Below, piece after piece: positions 1 to 12,353 of a stretch of DNA of 12,353 nt. The number at the start of each line of letters is the position of its first letter. Within the stretch, counting starts at the first letter, position 1. Position numbers: made by a program. Source of the stretch: Candidatus Acetothermia bacterium. Lineage in GTDB: Bacteria; Bipolaricaulota; Bipolaricaulia; M55B111. The stretch spans positions 1-12,353 of the forward strand of contig JBKGZT010000038.1 in the NCBI GenBank assembly GCA_046543235.1, read 5' to 3'.

Positions 1-3000
1 CCGTTTTTCTTTGGTAACAAGCAGTTGATATGGACCAAAGTACAGAAACTGGCATCTAGACCACAGTCGCAGCTAATTTTCAGCTTTGGAAACCGTTCAG
101 GAAAATCCTATCGGAGGCGAGCGGGCACGGTTCCAGCTCTACTCGCCTTCCCCTTCCTCTATCACCGTCAGTTCCCGACGGCACTCCGGACAGAGAATCC
201 TGATCCTATCGCTTCTGTGGCTCGGGCGCTCCTTTAACCTATCCCGGCGGGCGAGGTCGAGGTTTTCCAGGTAGGTCAGGAAAATACCCGGATTCGAGTA
301 AGCAACGTTTCCCAGCTTGTCGTACAGCCAGAGCAGGTGATCCCTGGTTCCGACTACTTCTCCACAGGCGTCACAAATTACCAGGTCCTTCTCGGTTTCG
401 GACCTCGGGCCCTCGTCCCCGCTAAACGACAGGGCGTATTCCCGCGAGAGCTCTATTCCTTCCCCCGTGGTACAGAACTTCTCGCACTGCCCACAGTAAA
501 TACATTCCTCCAGGTGGACGCTGAGCTTTCTCTCACCGCCAGCTCCATCCACCGAATCGTCCAGATGAATGGCATCCGCCGGACAGACGTGGTAGCAGCC
601 GCTACAGCCGACGCAACCGTCGGGCTGGTATTCCGGCGCTCCGCGGAAAGACGATGCCAGGTCGGCCTCCTCCTCCGGAAACCTGGAAGTAAACCTCCCT
701 GAAAATACGGCCCTTACTGCTTCTGCCAGCTCCCGGACCTTCGGTTTCTTCATGACTTATCCTCCTCGTATTTGTCGACCAGACTTCCTTCCCAGAGAGG
801 TATTCCGGATTCGTGGGCTCCGCGCGAAAGGGCGTGTGCCGCCGTAGGTGCAGTAATGACTATGAAGAGAATCGCGGCCAGAGCCTTCAAACCGGTGGGA
901 CTAACCCCTGAACTGATTAGGACGCCCAGGAGAATTGAACAGGTTCCCAGGGTAACGCATTTTGTAGCCCCCTGAAGCCTGTTATATACGTCTGGTAGCC
1001 TTATCAGGCCGATACAGCCGAACAAATTGAACAAAGTTCCGATGACTACTATCGCTTTTCCGGCTAGTTCACTCATCGAATTTCTTACCCTCCAGGTGTT
1101 TGGCAAGAGCAGTAGTGCCGATAAAACTCAACAACCCCCATGCCAGTGCGATGTTGAGGTAAAACGCCCTTTCAGTAATGAGCGTTAGAAGACCACAGAA
1201 TCCCACCACTAAAATACCCAGTATGTCTATTCCAACCATTCTATCGGCGGGGGTCGGCCCCGAACCTATCCTGTAAAGGCAGAGAAACGCGGATAAGGTC
1301 AGTAAACCGAGGCTGAAACTTATCATTCGAATATCCTCCCCAGTAACGGTTCGAACCTGCCCACGATTTCGCGGGTTGAAGCTTCGACGTCCGTGGAACT
1401 GATGTTAATCCAGTGGACGTAGAGATAGCCGTCTTCGGAGATATCGACTGTCATCGTCCCCGGAGTCAAGGTAATCGAATTCGCCAGCGCCGTTCTGGCC
1501 GAGTCGCTTTCCAGATCAGTTTCGACCTTTACTATACCCGGGTTAATCGGCACGTCCGGGTGCAAAACCCGGAAAGCGACGTCAAAATTGGCCACCACTA
1601 CCCACCAGGCAAGAACGAAGACGTAACAGCCGGCCCAAAAATATCGAACCAAGTTCAACCCTTTTCCGGGGTGCTCGGTCGCCAAACCTTCCAGGAGTAC
1701 TCCGGACAGGCCGGCAACAACGGCTCCAGCAACTACCATTGGCCAGCTCACGGGGCCGAAAGGCCAGGTAAATAAAAGCCAGACCCCAAAGGTCAACGAG
1801 AAGACGAAGAGAATTCTGGAAAACTTCGTATTCTTTCCAGCTTTTTCCACTGTAATCACCCAATTATAAGCCCAGGACCAGTTCCGTATATCGGGTACCT
1901 TCCTGTAAAGCCGTGGCGGCCGGCTTTAATACTATCCCCCGAATTTCAGGCAGATATAGCAACCCAAGACCGACACAGCAGATAGCCAAAATTACCAGCG
2001 GGATGTACAATCCGGGAGAAATCGTCCCGGATAGCCCGGCCTCGTCGGTAATCTCACCCAGAAATAGCTCCTTTTGAACTTTGAGATAATAGGCAAGGGT
2101 GACCGCGCTTGTAATCAGGACGATCCCGGCCAGGGCGTACATTTCACCCCAGATAGCCGCTATGACTATTACCAGCTTGCTCCAGAATCCGTTAAATGGA
2201 GGAATCCCCGATATCGATAGCGTACCTATTGTTCCTGTCGCGCCGGAAACGGGACTAACCCGGGTTATCCCACCGATTTCCCTCAGATCCCTCGTCCCGT
2301 AAAGCTTTTCAACGCCACCGCTAAACAGGAACAACAGGGATTTGTAAGTTGCGTGGTTGACCAGATGAAATATCCCGCCTATCAGTGCCAGAGTCGCTAT
2401 AGCCGGTTTATCTTGAGCAATCAGGGTTCCACCCATGCCGAGCCCAAGCGTGATATAACCCATCTGAGAGACGCTTGAATAAGCCAGCAACCTCTTGAGG
2501 TCCTTCTGCCCCAGCGCGATCATACCCCCGATAAACATCGACCCCGCCCCGATCCAGGTCAATATCCCCGGTGCCAGCTCCGGCAGATTGAGACCGTTAA
2601 ACAACAATCTCGCCAGGGCGTAGATACCGAGGACCTTTATCAGCACCCCTGACAGCATGGCTGAAATCGGCGTCGGGGCTGAAGAATGAGCATCCGGCAA
2701 CCACGAGTGGAACGGAACGAACGCAGCTTTGAGACCGAAGCCGACGATAAACAGGGCGGTACTGAGGAAGATAAAGGACTCCTGCTCCAGCTCGCTCACC
2801 CTGACGGAGATATCCGCGATGTTGAGCGAGCCGACCGAACCGTAGAGCAACGCTATACCCAGCAATATGAATATAGACCCCACGGCTCCCATAACGAGGT
2901 ACTTGAAGGAGGCCTCTATCTCCTCCGGGCCTCGATTGAACCCGACGAGCGCGTAGGAGCTTATCGCGGCGACTTCGAGGTAGACGTACATGTTGAAGAC

Positions 3001-6000
3001 GTCCCCGGTGAGCGCTACACCGTAGATTCCGGCCAGCATTAGCGAAAACAACCCGTAGAACTTACCCTGGTTTTCGTACTCGCTCATGTAGGTGAAAGAA
3101 AACAGGGCAGTTACGAGAGCTATCGCGCTTATCACTACCAGCAACAACGAGCTAAGACCGTCCAGGACGTAATTGATCCCTACCGGGGGAGGCCAGCCGG
3201 CCAACCTGTAGATCCCCCGATCACCGAATTTTACCAGGGAAAGCGCAAGCAAGAACCCGGTTTGAAGGATCATGGCCCCGGCAAATAACCTGGTCCGCTC
3301 CTTAAATTTTTCTATCAGCGGCAACAGAAAACCGATACCCAGCGGTACTGCCACGAACAATGGGAGCATTCTTTATTACCCCCTCAACTTCCGTATTTCC
3401 GTGATGTCGAAGGTTCCGTAGTGCTGGTATAACCTTACGGCCAGAGCAACCATCAGTGCCACGACGCCCAGGCTAATTACTATCGAAGTAATTACCAGTG
3501 CTTGAGGCAGGGGATCCACGGCAGTACTCAAGAACTCCTGAACCGATGCCTCTTCCGAGATAATCGGTGCCTCTCCCGACATCCTGTACCCGATCAGGAT
3601 AAGAAAGGCGTTCACGGCGTGCTCCATGATGATTATACCCATGATTATCTTAATCAAGTTCCTCTTGTTTATGACGCTGTAAAGCCCGACGGCAAACAGG
3701 ATAAACGCAAGCAGATAGGTAAACATCTCAATCCTCCTCGATAGCCCGGAACGTAGCGAGAAAGGCAAAAACCATGAAGATCGAGCCGCCGACCTTGAAC
3801 CCAATTGCGAGGTTGATTATCGGCATGTTGCCACCGCTCAACAGGCCAAACGGTTCTCCCGGAAATCCCGACTGAATAAAATTACTCAGGAAGGCTCCGC
3901 CGAAGACGTAACCAAGAAATCCCATGCAGAGAAACGAGAGAGAGGCAAGGCTATCCGTTATTTCGGCAGCCCCGGTATCAAAAACCCCGTCCACCTTCTC
4001 CTTCCCAAACGCCAGGGTAAGCAGAATAAAGCAACCGGCGATGATCACGCCACCGGGAAAGCCTCCACCCGGAGTCAGATGCCCGGTCAGAGCTATATAG
4101 ATCCCGAAGGCGATTATAAACGGAGCGACCCAGCGGGTAACCGTCTTTACGATCTTGCTCATTCCGCTCATCTTTACTCCTCCCCTTCGTAGAAAACTTC
4201 CTTCCGCAGCAGCGTGATAGCACCGAGAATAGCGGCAAAGAGCACTGTCGCCTCACCCAGCGTATCGTAGGCCCGGAAGTCCATCAGGATGTCGTTAACT
4301 ATGTTCGAGCCGCCGGCCGCATCCAGTCCGGATTCCAGGTAAAACCCACTGGCCGTTTCGGAAAAGGTATCCATGGCGGCTTCGCCGAACTCGGGAAAAA
4401 CGCTGAGGTAATTGGCGAAAAAGGCCGAACCGAGACCAAATAGAACCAGACTTCCAATTAACATCGGCTTGCCCTCGTTTCCCCTGATTTCCGTTACGCC
4501 TTTACCGATCGTGGCCCTGATAAGAATTACCAGCGTCAAGATCTCTACTACTACCTGAGTAATGGCGATATCCGGAGCTCCCAGCCAGAGAAAAGCGATA
4601 CTCAGCCCAAAACCCACCGCTCCAAGGGAAATTATGGAAGAAAGCGTGGAAGGAGCCTCTACGGCAATCAGAGCGGCAATTATCGTAAAGACCAGAAAGA
4701 CCTGAATGAGAACCATCCTACCAACCCCGTTATTGAGTAGTTAGAAGCCAGAGTACTACGATCAGACCGGCAAACACCCACACCAGATAACGCGAGAGCA
4801 ACCCGTTATGCGCTCGGCGTAACGACCTGGTAAAAGCCTTCCCCACCCAGTTAGTGACCACGTAGGGATCGATGAACTTACGCTCTTCCGCGACGTAGAT
4901 CCAGTTGACCAGCCTCGAATTCCTCACGCTTTTATATATCTCGGAAGGGTTTGCGCCAAAATCCAGGTCCTCGAGATAGGGGAAGTACTTGTCCCTGTCG
5001 ATCGTTTCCGCGTTCTCGCCTCCGAGAAAAGCCGGCTTCCTGCTGGACCGCTTTTTAAGGCCGAAGAGGGCATATATAGCAACCCCAACTACTATAGCAC
5101 CAATCAGGAAAGCCGCAGCCATGTAGCCGACCCACGTACCCGTGAATAGAGGTATCCCACCTAAAATCGGCCTGACTGTATCCAGCAACAGGCGCGGGTA
5201 TACGCCGAGGCCGATGCATAGTAGGGCAGGCACAGCCACGGCCGTCTTCATCCACCCATCGGGATACCTCTTCACCTCGCTCTCTTTCTCTCCAAAAAAA
5301 GCCGAAAACAGGAACTTCGAAATGTAGATAACCGACAGCGTACTACCGAACAATGCCGCCACCAGAATAAACGGGGCAAAGTTTCGCTCGAATCCGATGG
5401 AAGCCTGGTACAGCACCCACTTGGAGTAAAACCCGTTTAGCGGCGGAACTCCCGCAAGGGAGAGCGCACCGACCGAGGTCGAGGCAAATACCAGAGGTAA
5501 TTCCTTACCCAGGCCTCCCATCTCGTCCAGTTTCCTGGTACCCGTGACGTAGACGACTATTCCCGCCCCAAAGAAGAGCAACCCCTTGAAGAGGGCGTGG
5601 TTAATCAGGTGAATCACCCCTCCGGCTATTCCCAGGCCGGTGCCAATACCTATTCCTACCATGATATAGCCTACCTGCGATATGCTGGAATAGGCAATCA
5701 GCCGTTTTAGATCGTTCTGAACTATCGCCAGCAGTCCACCGATCACGATCGTAAAGGCCCCTATTACTGCCAGCGCGCTGCCCCAGGCAGGGGAAGTCTC
5801 GAACAATTCCCAGAAGATCCTGAGGATCCAGAACAGGCCGACCTTTATCATAATCCCGGAAAGGAGGGCGGAAATCGGAGAAGGGGCCTCCGGGTGGGCA
5901 TCGGGCAGCCAGGAGTGAATCGGGAAGAATGCCCCCTTTACGCCGAAACCGAGCAGGAACAGTGCCAGGATCGCAAGTCCCGTCCCGGAACCGGCAGGGT

Positions 6001-12000: not shown

Positions 12001-12353
12001 AGGCGACGTTATCCAGGAGGGTAAGAAAGTTCTCCTCCGAGAGGCGATAGAGATCCATAATACCTCCCTTAAATTGGTGGTAATGCCGCAAAAGTTTCTG
12101 CCGGAAGCCAGTAATCGTCCTTTAAGACAGCTTGACTTCGAAGCTACTTGGCCCTAGTTTTCGGAGCCCGCTGCCATTTATTTTTCCCGCTAGTACTCTG
12201 CAGGTAAATCGGTCAAGGACTTATCCATTCCCGGTGAGCCACTTCAGGGAGGTATCATTTACGTCGGCTCAAGAGTGAGAAAAGTTGCGTGAATATGATC
12301 CTTTTCACATTCCTATTATACATACATCTAACACTTTGTCAAATCAAGTACAA

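Follow-up and report, generated by a model that had tools for sequence, protein, structure and literature searches.

The closest described relative of the operon analysed here was named Hun (hunA-P) by Glass et al. (10.1101/536078), who reported a 16-subunit operon from Atribacteria, Firmicutes, Omnitrophica, Elusimicrobia and Kosmotoga and called its product ferredoxin-dependent. An Mbh-Mrp-oxidoreductase form of group-4 [NiFe] hydrogenase was described in Saganbacteria and Elusimicrobia, and its cooF-, asrA- and asrB-like genes were read as an 'oxidoreductase module' of which function and donor were unknown (PMC6349859, 10.1101/765248). Furthermore, a 'dehydrogenase-linked MBX complex' was proposed for Thermosphaera, Desulfurococcus and Staphylothermus (PMC3035292). 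The initial annotation of the present cluster implied that it was new and rare. This cannot be maintained, as the operon had already been published under the first two of these names.

The window (the whole stretch of 12,353 nucleotides that was analysed) contains a complete hun operon from a halophilic member of the Bipolaricaulota, running from hunA to hunP (Table 1). Its 16 tightly packed genes all lie on the minus strand (139 to 12058) behind a single consensus promoter-like site, with overlaps or gaps of no more than 18 nt between neighbours, and follow the order HydB/AsrA-like, HydG/AsrB-like, HycB-like, NuoH, NuoB, NuoC, NuoD, two antiporter-like pumps with Mrp subunits, and HycF-like. 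All 16 ORFs that had been placed between 139 and 12091 were recovered, including the overlaps between neighbours, and Pfam and NCBIfam returned for each the family previously given. On the basis of ribosome-binding sites and ortholog lengths the start codons of five genes (hunA, hunF, hunG, hunK and hunO) were moved to a later position, which shortened HunA from 355 aa and HunG from 402 aa. We read the operon as encoding one membrane complex, an ion-pumping [NiFe] hydrogenase fed by NAD(P)H via HunAB, and hold this reading with somewhat more confidence than doubt.

Table 1. Features of the hun operon and its 5' leader in the window
Feature	Position	Strand	Length (aa)	Description
promoter-like site	12315..12342	-		TTGACA-16-TATAAT; 12/12 consensus positions; hunA ATG about 257 nt downstream
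operator-like inverted repeat	12289..12308	-		GTGAA-N10-TTCAC; directly after the -10 box
anti-Shine-Dalgarno	12247..12253	-		ACCTCCC; possible pairing with the hunA ribosome-binding site (12062-12068)
hunA	11024..12058	-	344	HydB/ShyB/AsrA-like Fe-S protein; 15 invariant Cys
hunB	10186..11040	-	284	HydG/AsrB/PyrK-like flavoprotein; FAD_binding_6, NAD_binding_1, [2Fe-2S] domain
hunC	9647..10180	-	177-180	HycB/HydN/CooF-type poly-[4Fe-4S] connector; 16 Cys; weak fold model
hunD	8715..9647	-	310	NuoH/MbhM-like membrane subunit
hunE	8250..8696	-	148	NuoB/MbhJ-like hydrogenase small subunit
hunF	7795..8253	-	152	NuoC/MbhK-like; ATG at 8253
hunG	6594..7793	-	399	group-4 [NiFe] large subunit; RVCGIC and DPCYSC; conserved 43-aa tail after second motif
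hunH	4730..6601	-	623	NuoL/MbsH'-like antiporter-type pump subunit; 6u8y_X 3.6e-67, 6cfw_H 3.6e-65
hunI	4174..4716	-	180	MbhD+MbhE fusion (C-terminal part of MrpA)
hunJ	3728..4171	-	147	MnhB/MrpB-like
hunK	3376..3726	-	116	MnhC/NuoK-like; ATG at 3726
hunL	1864..3369	-	501	MrpD/NuoN-like second pump subunit
hunM	1323..1859	-	178	MrpE-like
hunN	1069..1326	-	85	MrpF-like
hunO	750..1076	-	108	MrpG-like; ATG at 1076
hunP	139..753	-	204	NuoI/HycF-like 2x[4Fe-4S] subunit; Cys-rich C-terminal extension

The large subunit HunG matched MbhL (6cfw_L) with exactly the value obtained before (1.5e-90), and both motifs of an intact NiFe site were found, as had been claimed. The second motif reads CYSC in the window, as in 8 of 57 orthologs, and CYCC in the other 49. 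The match to HycE (PDB 7z0s) was 5.8e-82; that of HunG to 6u8y_L was much weaker than that to 6cfw_L. For HunP the best solved relative was HycF (7z0s_F, 5.5e-19; MbhN, 3.5e-9), and HunC is of the HycB type (1.5e-15). The layout therefore fits that of formate hydrogenlyase, to which the cluster had been likened. HypD is present in the genome.

The input module was examined by family, motif and fold. HunA matched the beta subunit of sulfhydrogenase I (SHI; 9nez_B) at 9.5e-44, which reproduces the earlier value, and HunB matched the gamma subunit (9nez_C) at 5.9e-53. The NCBIfam scores of HunA remained far under the cut-offs (ShyB 183.9 versus 690, HydB 157 versus 750, AsrA 109.7 versus 323). 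The genome holds, as annotated, a separate canonical group-3b cluster (HydB-HydG-small-large-protease, contig C22) of which the HydB is only 29% identical to HunA, and a third HydB-like paralog (contig C64; 38% identical) has a degenerate second Cys motif. Across 49/49 orthologs HunB shows little or no variation in the GEAPFTPSS flavin motif, GxRGPxG, the nucleotide loop GGGxGxxPxR, CGPPxMM and the four Cys that make up the 2Fe-2S site. Its model (pLDDT 88.5) was closest to NADPH-bound SHI gamma of P. furiosus (9nf0_C; TM 0.87, rmsd 2.1 A), followed by PyrK and the NfnI small subunit. The nucleotide domain has a consensus GxRTP stretch following its second strand, and the Arg of this stretch is replaced by Asn in the HunB of the window. 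NADH and NADPH cannot be told apart by sequence; of the two, NADH is the more likely substrate. The earlier proposal of wiring to NAD(P)H is plausible, and the conserved motifs and modelled fold of HunB, together with the Rex genes and boxes described below, lend it added support.

The homology of HunA and HunB to SHI beta/gamma and to AsrA/AsrB would also suit a membrane-bound sulfhydrogenase, in which HunAB use H2 or NAD(P)H as the electron source for reducing polysulfide, S0 or a sulfur oxyanion; SHI itself has S0-reductase activity (also cited in PMC8542988). We consider this highly improbable. The operon is devoid of an AsrC-type siroheme subunit, the Ni-Fe site of HunG is intact, unlike in the sulfur-reducing MBS/Mbx type represented by 6u8y_L, and no recurrent sulfur-handling gene was present among the 74 nearest upstream ORFs.

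The order HydB-HydG-HycB-NuoH had been noted in 13 other genomes of two families, which is a large underestimate. With HunA as bait, the same gene order was found in 87/87 loci of sufficient reach from more than 15 phylum-level groups, among them, going by record titles, Omnitrophota, Planctomycetota, Atribacterota, Hydrogenedentota, Elusimicrobia and Caldisericota. Counting for each gene only the loci that reach far enough, HunA was followed by HunB in 80/80, NuoH in 60/60, NuoD in 51/51 and Mrp genes in 45/47 loci. In 50 operons the distance matrices of HunA, HunB and HunC correlated with those of HunG and HunD (r=0.77-0.90); the value for HunA versus HunG (0.90) was on a par with that for NuoH versus NuoD (0.88). 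Both gene order and distance correlation thus bear out that the HydB/HydG/HycB-like and Mbh-Mrp genes form one conserved unit. The input module is swappable among relatives: a molybdopterin gene lies between HunB and HunC in 9/74 loci and in L074, and in one family (f8) that is devoid of HunABC another Fe-S module occupies exactly their place. As gene adjacency alone is weak evidence of binding, HunAB, with or without HunC, might be merely co-transcribed neighbours that form a separate soluble oxidoreductase not docked to the hydrogenase. This is the least probable of the explanations considered, given the invariant order, the overlapping reading frames, the equal co-divergence of HunA-C and HunD/G, and the replacement in family f8. 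Moreover, HunC and HunP correspond to HycB and HycF, which in the formate hydrogenlyase of E. coli together connect FdhF with the core.

Rex, the NADH/NAD+ sensor, represses NADH-oxidising genes through a described consensus operator (PMC5317091, PMC2883068). A Rex gene or Rex operator was found directly upstream of hunA in 25/75 loci. A Rex-family repressor was the nearest upstream gene on the same strand in 15/74 loci, ending at most 24 nt from hunA in 12 of these 15. Rex boxes, defined by at most 2/14 mismatches to TTGTGAA-N4-TTCACAA, occurred within 350 nt upstream of hunA in 12/75 loci, against 0/286 control windows; in 200 shuffles the mean number of loci was 0.165 and the highest 2. Since Rex regulons also take in ferredoxin-dependent hydrogenases, this link does not single out NADH as the substrate. 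In the window, no rex gene was seen within the 295 nt upstream of hun, where the contig ends, and a canonical Rex box with at most one mismatch was found nowhere in the genome. The operator-like repeat of the window has the half-sites of the Rex box at a spacing of 10 versus 4, and is kept in four leaders (L001, L003, L004 and L006). Both promoter hexamers are kept in those orthologous Bipolaricaulota leaders that are long enough to include them; the promoter scan as a whole gave 6 sites versus 5.8 expected from shuffles, i.e. no enrichment. The helix of ACCTCCC with the ribosome-binding site was the sole consensus helix (6/6 leaders), with a fold z-score of only -1.36 and without covariation because both sides are invariant.

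According to the only paper naming Hun, HunABC would pass electrons from reduced ferredoxin to the [NiFe] site with MBH-like export of H+ or Na+ (10.1101/536078), which would leave the nucleotide site of HunB idle in turnover. HydDB likewise lists ferredoxin as putative partner of group 4g (PMC5037454). Thermodynamically the reaction poses no difficulty. Four POR_N matches indicate that the genome makes reduced ferredoxin, and an [FeFe] hydrogenase was not found in it (87% completeness). Besides, a small NIL+Fer4 ferredoxin-like gene directly upstream of hunA in 6/74 loci would fit a ferredoxin partner. This explanation seems unlikely to us: it accounts neither for the retention of the FAD and NAD(P) motifs in all HunB orthologs nor for the Rex genes and boxes, and gives no reason for three extra subunits on an MBH-type core when MbhN alone suffices. 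Related Bipolaricaulota, furthermore, already have the plain Mrp-Mbh type without HunABC (L112-L116).

In the favoured NAD(P)H-fed complex, all 16 products would assemble together. NAD(P)H would bind HunB and electrons would pass from FAD to the [2Fe-2S] cluster of HunB, the Fe-S clusters of HunA, the four of HunC, the two of HunP, the single cluster of HunE and finally the [NiFe] site of HunG. HunD, HunH and HunL (the two antiporter-like pumps) and the Mrp subunits would couple the reduction of protons, or in reverse the oxidation of H2, to H+/Na+ movement across the membrane. With potentials of about -320 mV for NAD(P)H versus -414 mV for H2, the reaction towards H2 is uphill under standard conditions and needs either a low H2 level or a contribution from the ion gradient. 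Physiologically, the enzyme would probably evolve H2, at high NADH/NAD+ and with consumers keeping H2 low, which may be helped by, or may barely pay for, the ion gradient. If true, the enzyme would resemble complex I but have H+/H2 rather than quinone at its end, and would be built as a formate hydrogenlyase in which HunAB replace FdhF. A dual-input (confurcation-like) enzyme is another candidate, in which NADH via HunB and reduced ferredoxin via HunC, HunP or HunA would share one Fe-S chain, and the favourable ferredoxin electrons together with the ion gradient would let NADH electrons exit as H2. It would accommodate the features cited for either donor as well as the swappable input module, in a genome with two Rnf/Nqr-type clusters and no detected [FeFe] confurcating hydrogenase. 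We regard it as unlikely, to about the same degree as the ferredoxin reading, because by its fold match the HunB flavin corresponds to that of PyrK/NfnA-type subunits, which is non-bifurcating, the domain search found no second flavin site in any of the 16 proteins, and any ferredoxin docking site is putative.

Among solved enzymes, P. furiosus MBH (6cfw, group 4d) is the best relative of HunG and shares with Hun the Mrp-derived module and the NuoH/B/C/D/I core. It takes ferredoxin directly at MbhN, without HunABC, and has only one large pump subunit, whereas Hun has HunH and HunL; HunP resembles HycF more closely than MbhN. The gene order of MBH differs from that of Hun as well: relatives with the plain Mrp-Mbh type (L114-L116) have the Mrp genes at the front. 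E. coli FHL-1 (7z0s, group 4a) follows the same wiring logic, from a soluble dehydrogenase through HycB- and HycF-type proteins and the small subunit to [NiFe]; Hun puts HunAB (flavin, NAD(P) site, Fe-S) where FHL-1 has FdhF and adds a full Mrp module. P. furiosus SHI (9nez/9nf0, group 3b), with beta and gamma subunits homologous to HunA and HunB, is a soluble enzyme in which these two subunits feed a group-3 small and large subunit. The genome's own 3b cluster is separate from hun, and the scores fall short of the NCBIfam equivalog cut-offs. With the dehydrogenase-linked MBX complex, an NADPH dehydrogenase replacing formate dehydrogenase had already been proposed to feed a membrane complex of the MBH/MBX type; its module is SudA/GltD-like, not HydB/HydG-like, on an Mbx-type core in archaeal hosts (PMC3035292). 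The Mbh-Mrp-oxidoreductase type combines, as the window does, hydrogenase and Mrp genes with cooF-, asrA- and asrB-like genes (PMC6349859, 10.1101/765248), and its Saganbacteria version adds a molybdopterin oxidoreductase that the window is without. The Hun of Glass et al. (10.1101/536078) has 16 genes in the same order as the window: AsrA/AsrB-like HunAB without AsrC, the Fe-S protein HunC, a NuoH/B/C/D-type hydrogenase with the CGIC first motif in HunG, Mrp-type subunits and a NuoI-like last gene; in some relatives a molybdopterin gene separates HunB from HunC. The second HunG motif is reported there as CYCC versus CYSC in the window, and section 8 of that paper names ferredoxin as donor, does not list Bipolaricaulota among the hosts and holds neither an NAD(P)H reading nor a Rex link. 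The operon of the window thus joins the known Hun kind, to which the present analysis adds support for NAD(P)H from the HunB motifs, the HunB fold and the link to Rex.

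The sixteen genes of the window, hunA to hunP, stand in the order published for the Hun operon, and the same order was found in the 87 related loci that were compared with it. All family-matching long ORFs of the window lie on the minus strand and the GC skew is below zero along its whole length. Its 12,353 bases form one entire contig (C40) of a 1.32 Mb genome that is 87% complete. The gene cluster described in the initial annotation was borne out, but the starts of five genes were corrected on the basis of ribosome-binding sites and ortholog lengths; with these starts (listed in the table) the overlaps between neighbours measure 1-17 nt and the gaps at most 18 nt. 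The PDB matches reported earlier were identical to the digit on repeat, and the RVCGIC and DPCYSC motifs were both recovered in HunG. A search of sequencing runs listed 15 DNA runs and no RNA run; in four of the DNA runs, all from one study, the share of sampled words present was 0.89 or higher. In itself the window is ordinary: its copy of this already described operon, in a hypersaline Bipolaricaulota genome, is well preserved.

Features of the operon, its leader and related sites elsewhere in the genome and in other loci
Feature	Position	Strand	Description	Basis
hunA	start 12058	-	HydB/ShyB/AsrA-like Fe-S protein; first transcribed	Pfam, NCBIfam
hunB		-	HydG/AsrB/PyrK-like flavoprotein (FAD_binding_6, NAD_binding_1, DHODB_Fe-S_bind)	Pfam, NCBIfam
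hunC		-	HycB/HydN-type poly-ferredoxin	Pfam, NCBIfam
hunD		-	NuoH-like	Pfam, NCBIfam
hunE		-	NuoB-like	Pfam, NCBIfam
hunF	start 8253	-	NuoC-like	Pfam, NCBIfam
hunG	start 7793	-	NuoD-like	Pfam, NCBIfam
HunG tail	6594-6725		after second Ni-Fe motif
hunH		-	NuoL-like pump, 623 aa	Pfam, NCBIfam
hunI		-	MbhD+MbhE fusion	Pfam, NCBIfam
hunJ		-	MnhB	Pfam, NCBIfam
hunK	start 3726	-	MnhC	Pfam, NCBIfam
hunL		-	MrpD-like pump, 501 aa	Pfam, NCBIfam
hunM		-	MrpE	Pfam, NCBIfam
hunN		-	MrpF	Pfam, NCBIfam
hunO	start 1076	-	MrpG	Pfam, NCBIfam
hunP		-	HycF/NuoI-like; last gene	Pfam, NCBIfam
leader	12059-12342	-	5' leader of about 250 nt after consensus promoter	comparison of window, L001-L004, L006
promoter	12342-12315		sigma-70 consensus
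palindrome	12289-12308		GTGAA-N10-TTCAC, predicted transcription start
anti-SD	12247-12253		ACCTCCC
GTGAA-N4-TTCAC site	C22:11352-11365		single site in own genome
third [NiFe] hydrogenase	C62:9-2523		485-aa large and 357-aa small subunit
orphan HunA paralog with AIR-synthase/HypE-like gene	C64:6580-7632, C64:7762-8730		38% identical; second Cys motif degenerate
rex gene directly upstream of hunA	L016, L021-L023, L027, L029, L030, L038, L044, L045, L047, L052, L058, L063, L071	same as hunA
Rex box only, no rex gene	L018, L024, L031, L035, L040, L053, L059, L076, L082, L094
molybdopterin gene between hunB and hunC	L069, L070, L074, L079, L080, L082, L086, L089, L090, L092		divergent, about 600 aa	Pfam checked for three

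The genes upstream of the operon are unrelated in the orthologous loci within the phylum, and hunA is therefore its first gene. The sigma-70 consensus in front of it is matched at 12 of 12 positions, in a promoter scan that overall was without enrichment. The palindrome, whose half-sites equal those of a Rex box but stand 10 nt apart, is conserved in four orthologous leaders. In all six leaders compared a conserved anti-SD sequence is able to pair with the invariant ribosome-binding site of hunA, and the sequence separating the two is variable. The leaders showed no covariation for this helix, the z-score of the fold being -1.36, and a search of the leader against Rfam gave nothing; the sole match with E of 1 or less was an unrelated DUF805b inside hunH (E 0.72).

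A single-protein scan with HunA yielded seven orthologous loci in Bipolaricaulota-type MAGs and one orphan paralog. In a protein search 18 clusters reached 61% identity or more, followed by a sharp fall to a tier of 45% or less, whose members number in the hundreds and come from Omnitrophota, Hydrogenedentota and Aerophobetes, among other groups. An alignment-based scan found at least 518 relatives in many uncultured anaerobic phyla, the best 80 of which were kept. All ORFs of the 87 loci were then compared with the 16 proteins of the window and with the group-3b hydrogenase proteins of the same genome. Two orphan HunA paralogs that have no hydrogenase neighbours, L008 and the one on the genome's own contig C64, were excluded from the synteny counts. 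The C64 paralog (cf. L008) branches beside the Bipolaricaulota HunA clade; an AIR-synthase-related gene is also the nearest upstream neighbour of hunA in three loci (L059, L088 and L091).

HunB followed HunA in all 80 loci having 1.2 kb of room, NuoH was present within 4.5 kb downstream in 60 of 60 and NuoD within 7.5 kb in 51 of 51, and Mrp genes were found in 45 of the 47 loci having 9 kb of room. A HunA-type gene next to group-3b subunits was seen in none of the 87 loci. This constancy makes it most improbable that HunA and HunB are mere neighbours of the hydrogenase, unconnected with it. The pairwise distances of HunA, HunB and HunC correlate with those of HunD and HunG in 50 operons (r=0.77-0.90), as well as those of NuoH do with those of NuoD; because host relatedness contributes, this shows co-inheritance and not contact. 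The two exceptions to the presence of Mrp genes, L019 and L062, have a short operon of the order HunA-B-C-D-E-F-G-P-protease, with a TPR protein between hunB and hunC in L062. When HunG was searched for in 184 species genomes within the phylum, 14 genomes of the window's family had a homolog of at least 83% identity and eight genomes of two other families one of 59-66%. The remainder (50% or less) belonged to the plain Mrp-Mbh type, in which the Mrp genes lead and HunABC is absent.

The enzyme has the features of group 4 [NiFe] hydrogenases: both CxxC Ni-Fe motifs are present in the NuoD-like large subunit, the small subunit is NuoB-like and the membrane anchor NuoH-like, and the genome contains maturation genes. 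The first motif of HunG, RVCGIC, contains the published CGIC; the second is CYSC, in which both Ni-binding cysteines of CxxC are retained. In 57 full-length orthologs the second motif reads CYCC in 49 and CYSC in eight (the window and seven others), and HunG of L004, from the same phylum as the window, has CYCC. The tail that follows this motif measures 34-52 aa in all 57 orthologs and contains a conserved ...LS.EKT... signature. In appearance it resembles the cleaved extension of HycE-type subunits, but it is conserved better than a mere leaving peptide. HunG was classed as group 4g by Glass et al. (10.1101/536078), and the cluster of Ca. Tritonobacter lacicola, our locus L047, has likewise been called 4g and drawn as a ferredoxin-dependent Mbh-Mrp (PMC9324843).

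On the input side, HunB has the features of an FNR/PyrK-type flavoprotein: an FAD-binding barrel, a Rossmann nucleotide domain that bears a Gly-rich loop and the CGP motif, and at the C-terminus a 2Fe-2S site of the form Cx4CxxC...C, all its Pfam domains exceeding the cut-off. An alignment of 49 orthologs, drawn from many phyla, showed the flavin contact GEAPFTPSS, GxRGPxG, the nucleotide loop GGGxGxxPxR, CGPPxMM and the Cx4CxxC...C cluster site to be invariant or nearly so in all 49. The structural model of HunB (pLDDT 88.5) came closest to 9nf0_C, the NADPH-bound gamma subunit of Pyrococcus furiosus sulfhydrogenase I (TM 0.87, rmsd 2.1 Å), followed by PyrK and the small subunit of NfnI. Because the nucleotide site is kept so well over such distances, it is very probably in use. 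HunA contains 15 invariant cysteines. By FastTree topology alone it falls in a clade of its own, apart from the HydB of the genome's 3b enzyme, and the genes around HunAB encode group-4 and not group-3b small and large subunits. Scores against the NCBIfam sulfhydrogenase equivalogs stayed below cut-off (ShyB 183.9 versus 690, HydB 157 versus 750, and 179.3 versus 600 and 178.9 versus 650 for ShyC and HydG).

The cut-offs of the AsrAB equivalogs were not reached either (TIGR02910, 109.7 versus 323; TIGR02911, 211.5 versus 288.6). An enzyme linked to sulfur would accord with the likeness to AsrA and AsrB, but HunAB come without the catalytic AsrC, and no siroheme or AsrC-type domain was detected among the 16 proteins with Pfam or NCBIfam; we consider such a link very unlikely. 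HunC is of the HycB type and HunP is nearer to HycF than to MbhN; the fold model of HunC had weak matches only (TM 0.25-0.32) and adds nothing to those from sequence. The initial annotation had interpreted the cluster as a hydrogenase wired to NAD(P)H, instead of ferredoxin or in addition to it, and laid out like formate hydrogenlyase. This interpretation is borne out in part. Since a HycB/HycF-type pair bridges FdhF to the core in the E. coli formate hydrogenlyase, the analogy is apt, and an NAD(P)H-type site is indeed conserved in HunB. The implied novelty of the arrangement did not hold, since Hun is already in print. An NAD(P)H-linked Hun enzyme is the reading that we incline to, with somewhat more confidence than doubt.

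Rex is an NADH/NAD+-sensing repressor of NADH-oxidising genes and has the consensus TTGTGAA-N4-TTCACAA (PMC5317091; PMC2883068). Boxes with at most 2 mismatches in 14 positions were sought in those 75 of the 87 loci whose sequence extends 350 nt or more beyond the start of hunA on its upstream side. Such a box was present within this distance in 12 of the 75, three being perfect and five having one mismatch. None occurred in 286 windows of equal length inside the operons (coding sequence, of unmatched composition), and 200 shuffles of the upstream regions gave a mean of 0.165 loci and a maximum of 2. Besides, in 15 of 74 loci the nearest upstream ORF encodes a Rex-family protein (PF06971 and PF02629), always on the same strand; in 12 of these 15 it ends at most 24 nt from hunA, and in 12 of 15 a box with up to two mismatches is located where rex starts or in the interval separating it from hunA (a count without control). 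A rex gene or a box was found in 25 of 75 loci when combined. From these sequences, expression of Hun would be tied to the NADH/NAD+ ratio in MAGs of Omnitrophota, Planctomycetia, Atribacterota, Clostridia, Auribacterota and Aerophobetes. This fits a role of Hun in the re-oxidation of NADH, but it does not prove the substrate, since other fermentative enzymes also belong to Rex regulons.

The window itself lacks these features of a Rex regulon: the best match in its leader has a spacing of 10 and three mismatches, and its contig ends 295 nt upstream of hunA, a stretch that contains no rex gene. The two Rex-family genes of the genome are on C16 and C4, and a canonical box with at most one mismatch occurs nowhere in the genome. 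Its GTGAA-N4-TTCAC site on C22 precedes the group-3b hydrogenase cluster by about 325 nt; since about 1.3 such sites per spacing are expected by chance, it counts as a lead and no more.

The genome encodes four POR_N matches, which make reduced ferredoxin, two Rnf/Nqr-type clusters, the 3b hydrogenase on C22 and HypD. A third [NiFe] hydrogenase was encountered on C62. At 87% completeness neither an [FeFe] hydrogenase nor a CdhC-type acetyl-CoA synthase was found. On the strength of this combination the organism looks like a fermenter and not an acetogen. With reduced ferredoxin available, and with ferredoxin as the donor proposed by Glass et al. (10.1101/536078), a Hun enzyme fed by ferredoxin only might be envisaged; considering the conservation of the nucleotide site of HunB, we regard this as unlikely. 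An enzyme with both inputs would accommodate that site as well as the ferredoxin supply, and appears no more probable.

If the NAD(P)H-linked reading is followed, the direction of the reaction has to be considered. With NADH as the donor, H2 formation runs about 94 mV uphill at standard potentials and is roughly neutral when H2 is kept low by consumers. The pump-linked enzyme could then use the Na+/H+ gradient that Rnf builds and so drive electrons from NADH into H2; alternatively, it might run backwards at high H2. We tentatively propose, with rather less than even confidence, that Hun works as a reversible NADH:H+ oxidoreductase under the control of Rex, a 'complex I that ends in hydrogen', by which fermenters without confurcating [FeFe] hydrogenases would vent the electrons of glycolytic NADH as H2 in trade with the Na+/H+ gradient, and whose core would carry interchangeable input modules. 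If true, the largest uncharacterised group-4 hydrogenase class in candidate phyla would have a donor that differs from the ferredoxin assumed in the literature. Metabolic models routinely draw the Hun/4g enzyme as ferredoxin-dependent; with NADH as the donor, the redox and energy balances of these organisms would change, and so would the degree to which they are expected to depend on H2 consumers. To our knowledge, no enzyme of group 4g or of the Hun type has yet been assayed. The question of the donor becomes sharply testable with the rex genes and boxes and the conservation of HunB's nucleotide site, and a cultured Kosmotoga that has the operon (Glass et al., 10.1101/536078) offers a bench system.

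The composition of the input module varies among the loci. The molybdopterin-oxidoreductase gene between hunB and hunC was present in 9 of 74 loci plus L074, an insertion that accords with reports in two papers. L104 (G096:C5), L105 (G094:C25) and L111 (G095:C44), from a Bipolaricaulota family other than that of the window, have a Hun-type core without HunABC (HunG 64-65% identical, with CYCC). In place of HunABC, directly before hunD and on the same strand, two genes code for a small subunit resembling VhuG and a large-subunit homolog resembling VhuA, and HunF is extended by N-terminal Fer2 [2Fe-2S] and RnfB-type FeS domains. Because the VhuA-like homolog has no cysteine at either Ni-Fe motif, it is presumably non-catalytic. 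Three input modules are seen: HunABC; HunAB with a molybdopterin enzyme and HunC; and a cysteine-less Mvh-type pair with a ferredoxin-fused HunF. The conserved pump and hydrogenase core thus appears to accept interchangeable input modules. In a third Bipolaricaulota family (L106 and L109) the full Hun operon is accompanied by an intact Mvh/Vhu-type (group 3c-like) pair of small and large subunits, transcribed divergently and just upstream of hunA. Six loci (L033, L040, L043, L053, L073 and L076) have, directly upstream of hunA and on the same strand, a gene of 135-139 aa for a ferredoxin-like protein with a NIL domain and two [4Fe-4S] sites, which may be a dedicated ferredoxin partner.

The 16-subunit "Hun" operon was described in Atribacteria, Firmicutes, Omnitrophica, Elusimicrobia, Bacteroidetes and the cultured Kosmotoga, with HunAB AsrAB-like but lacking AsrC, HunC an Fe-S protein, the HunG signature CGIC...CYCC and, in some genomes, a molybdopterin gene between HunB and HunC (Glass et al., 10.1101/536078). 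Our counts of CYCC and CYSC and of the molybdopterin insertion agree with that description. Matheus Carnevali et al. (PMC6349859) found the same combination in Saganbacteria, with a hydrogenase, Mrp, a molybdopterin oxidoreductase, cooF, asrA and asrB, and spoke of an enigmatic "oxidoreductase module", asrA and asrB not occurring in the supplementary files searched, and a "Mbh-Mrp-oxidoreductase type" of unknown function was named by Meheust et al. (10.1101/765248). An older proposal of an MBX complex linked to an NADPH dehydrogenase concerns a SudA-like module (PMC3035292). Two leads were dropped: the supposed HydBG-linked Mbx of Mesotoga was wrong, as the paper describes an [FeFe] system of the Hnd type, with Mbx separate from it (10.1101/322537), and a Methylocystis preprint mentions AsrB only next to a 3b enzyme. 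The literature searched, beyond which subscription journals and supplements may hold more, contained no paper that assays Hun or proposes an NAD(P)H substrate or a Rex link. As far as these searches reach, three points go beyond what is in print: the conservation of the nucleotide site in HunB, the link to Rex and the apparent exchange of input modules.

The operon of the window is Hun, a described but unassayed kind, here as a CYSC variant in what is, as far as the literature reached, a new host phylum. In the MBH of group 4d, the P. furiosus type, ferredoxin is accepted directly at the NuoI-like subunit, there is no extra soluble input module and the Mrp genes come first, whereas HunABC is present in the window and leads the operon. 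Related genomes (L112-L116) carry, separately, the plain type in which the Mrp genes lead. The formate hydrogenlyases of group 4a/4b, in turn, have an FdhF (molybdopterin) subunit, while Pfam detects no molybdopterin domain in the window.
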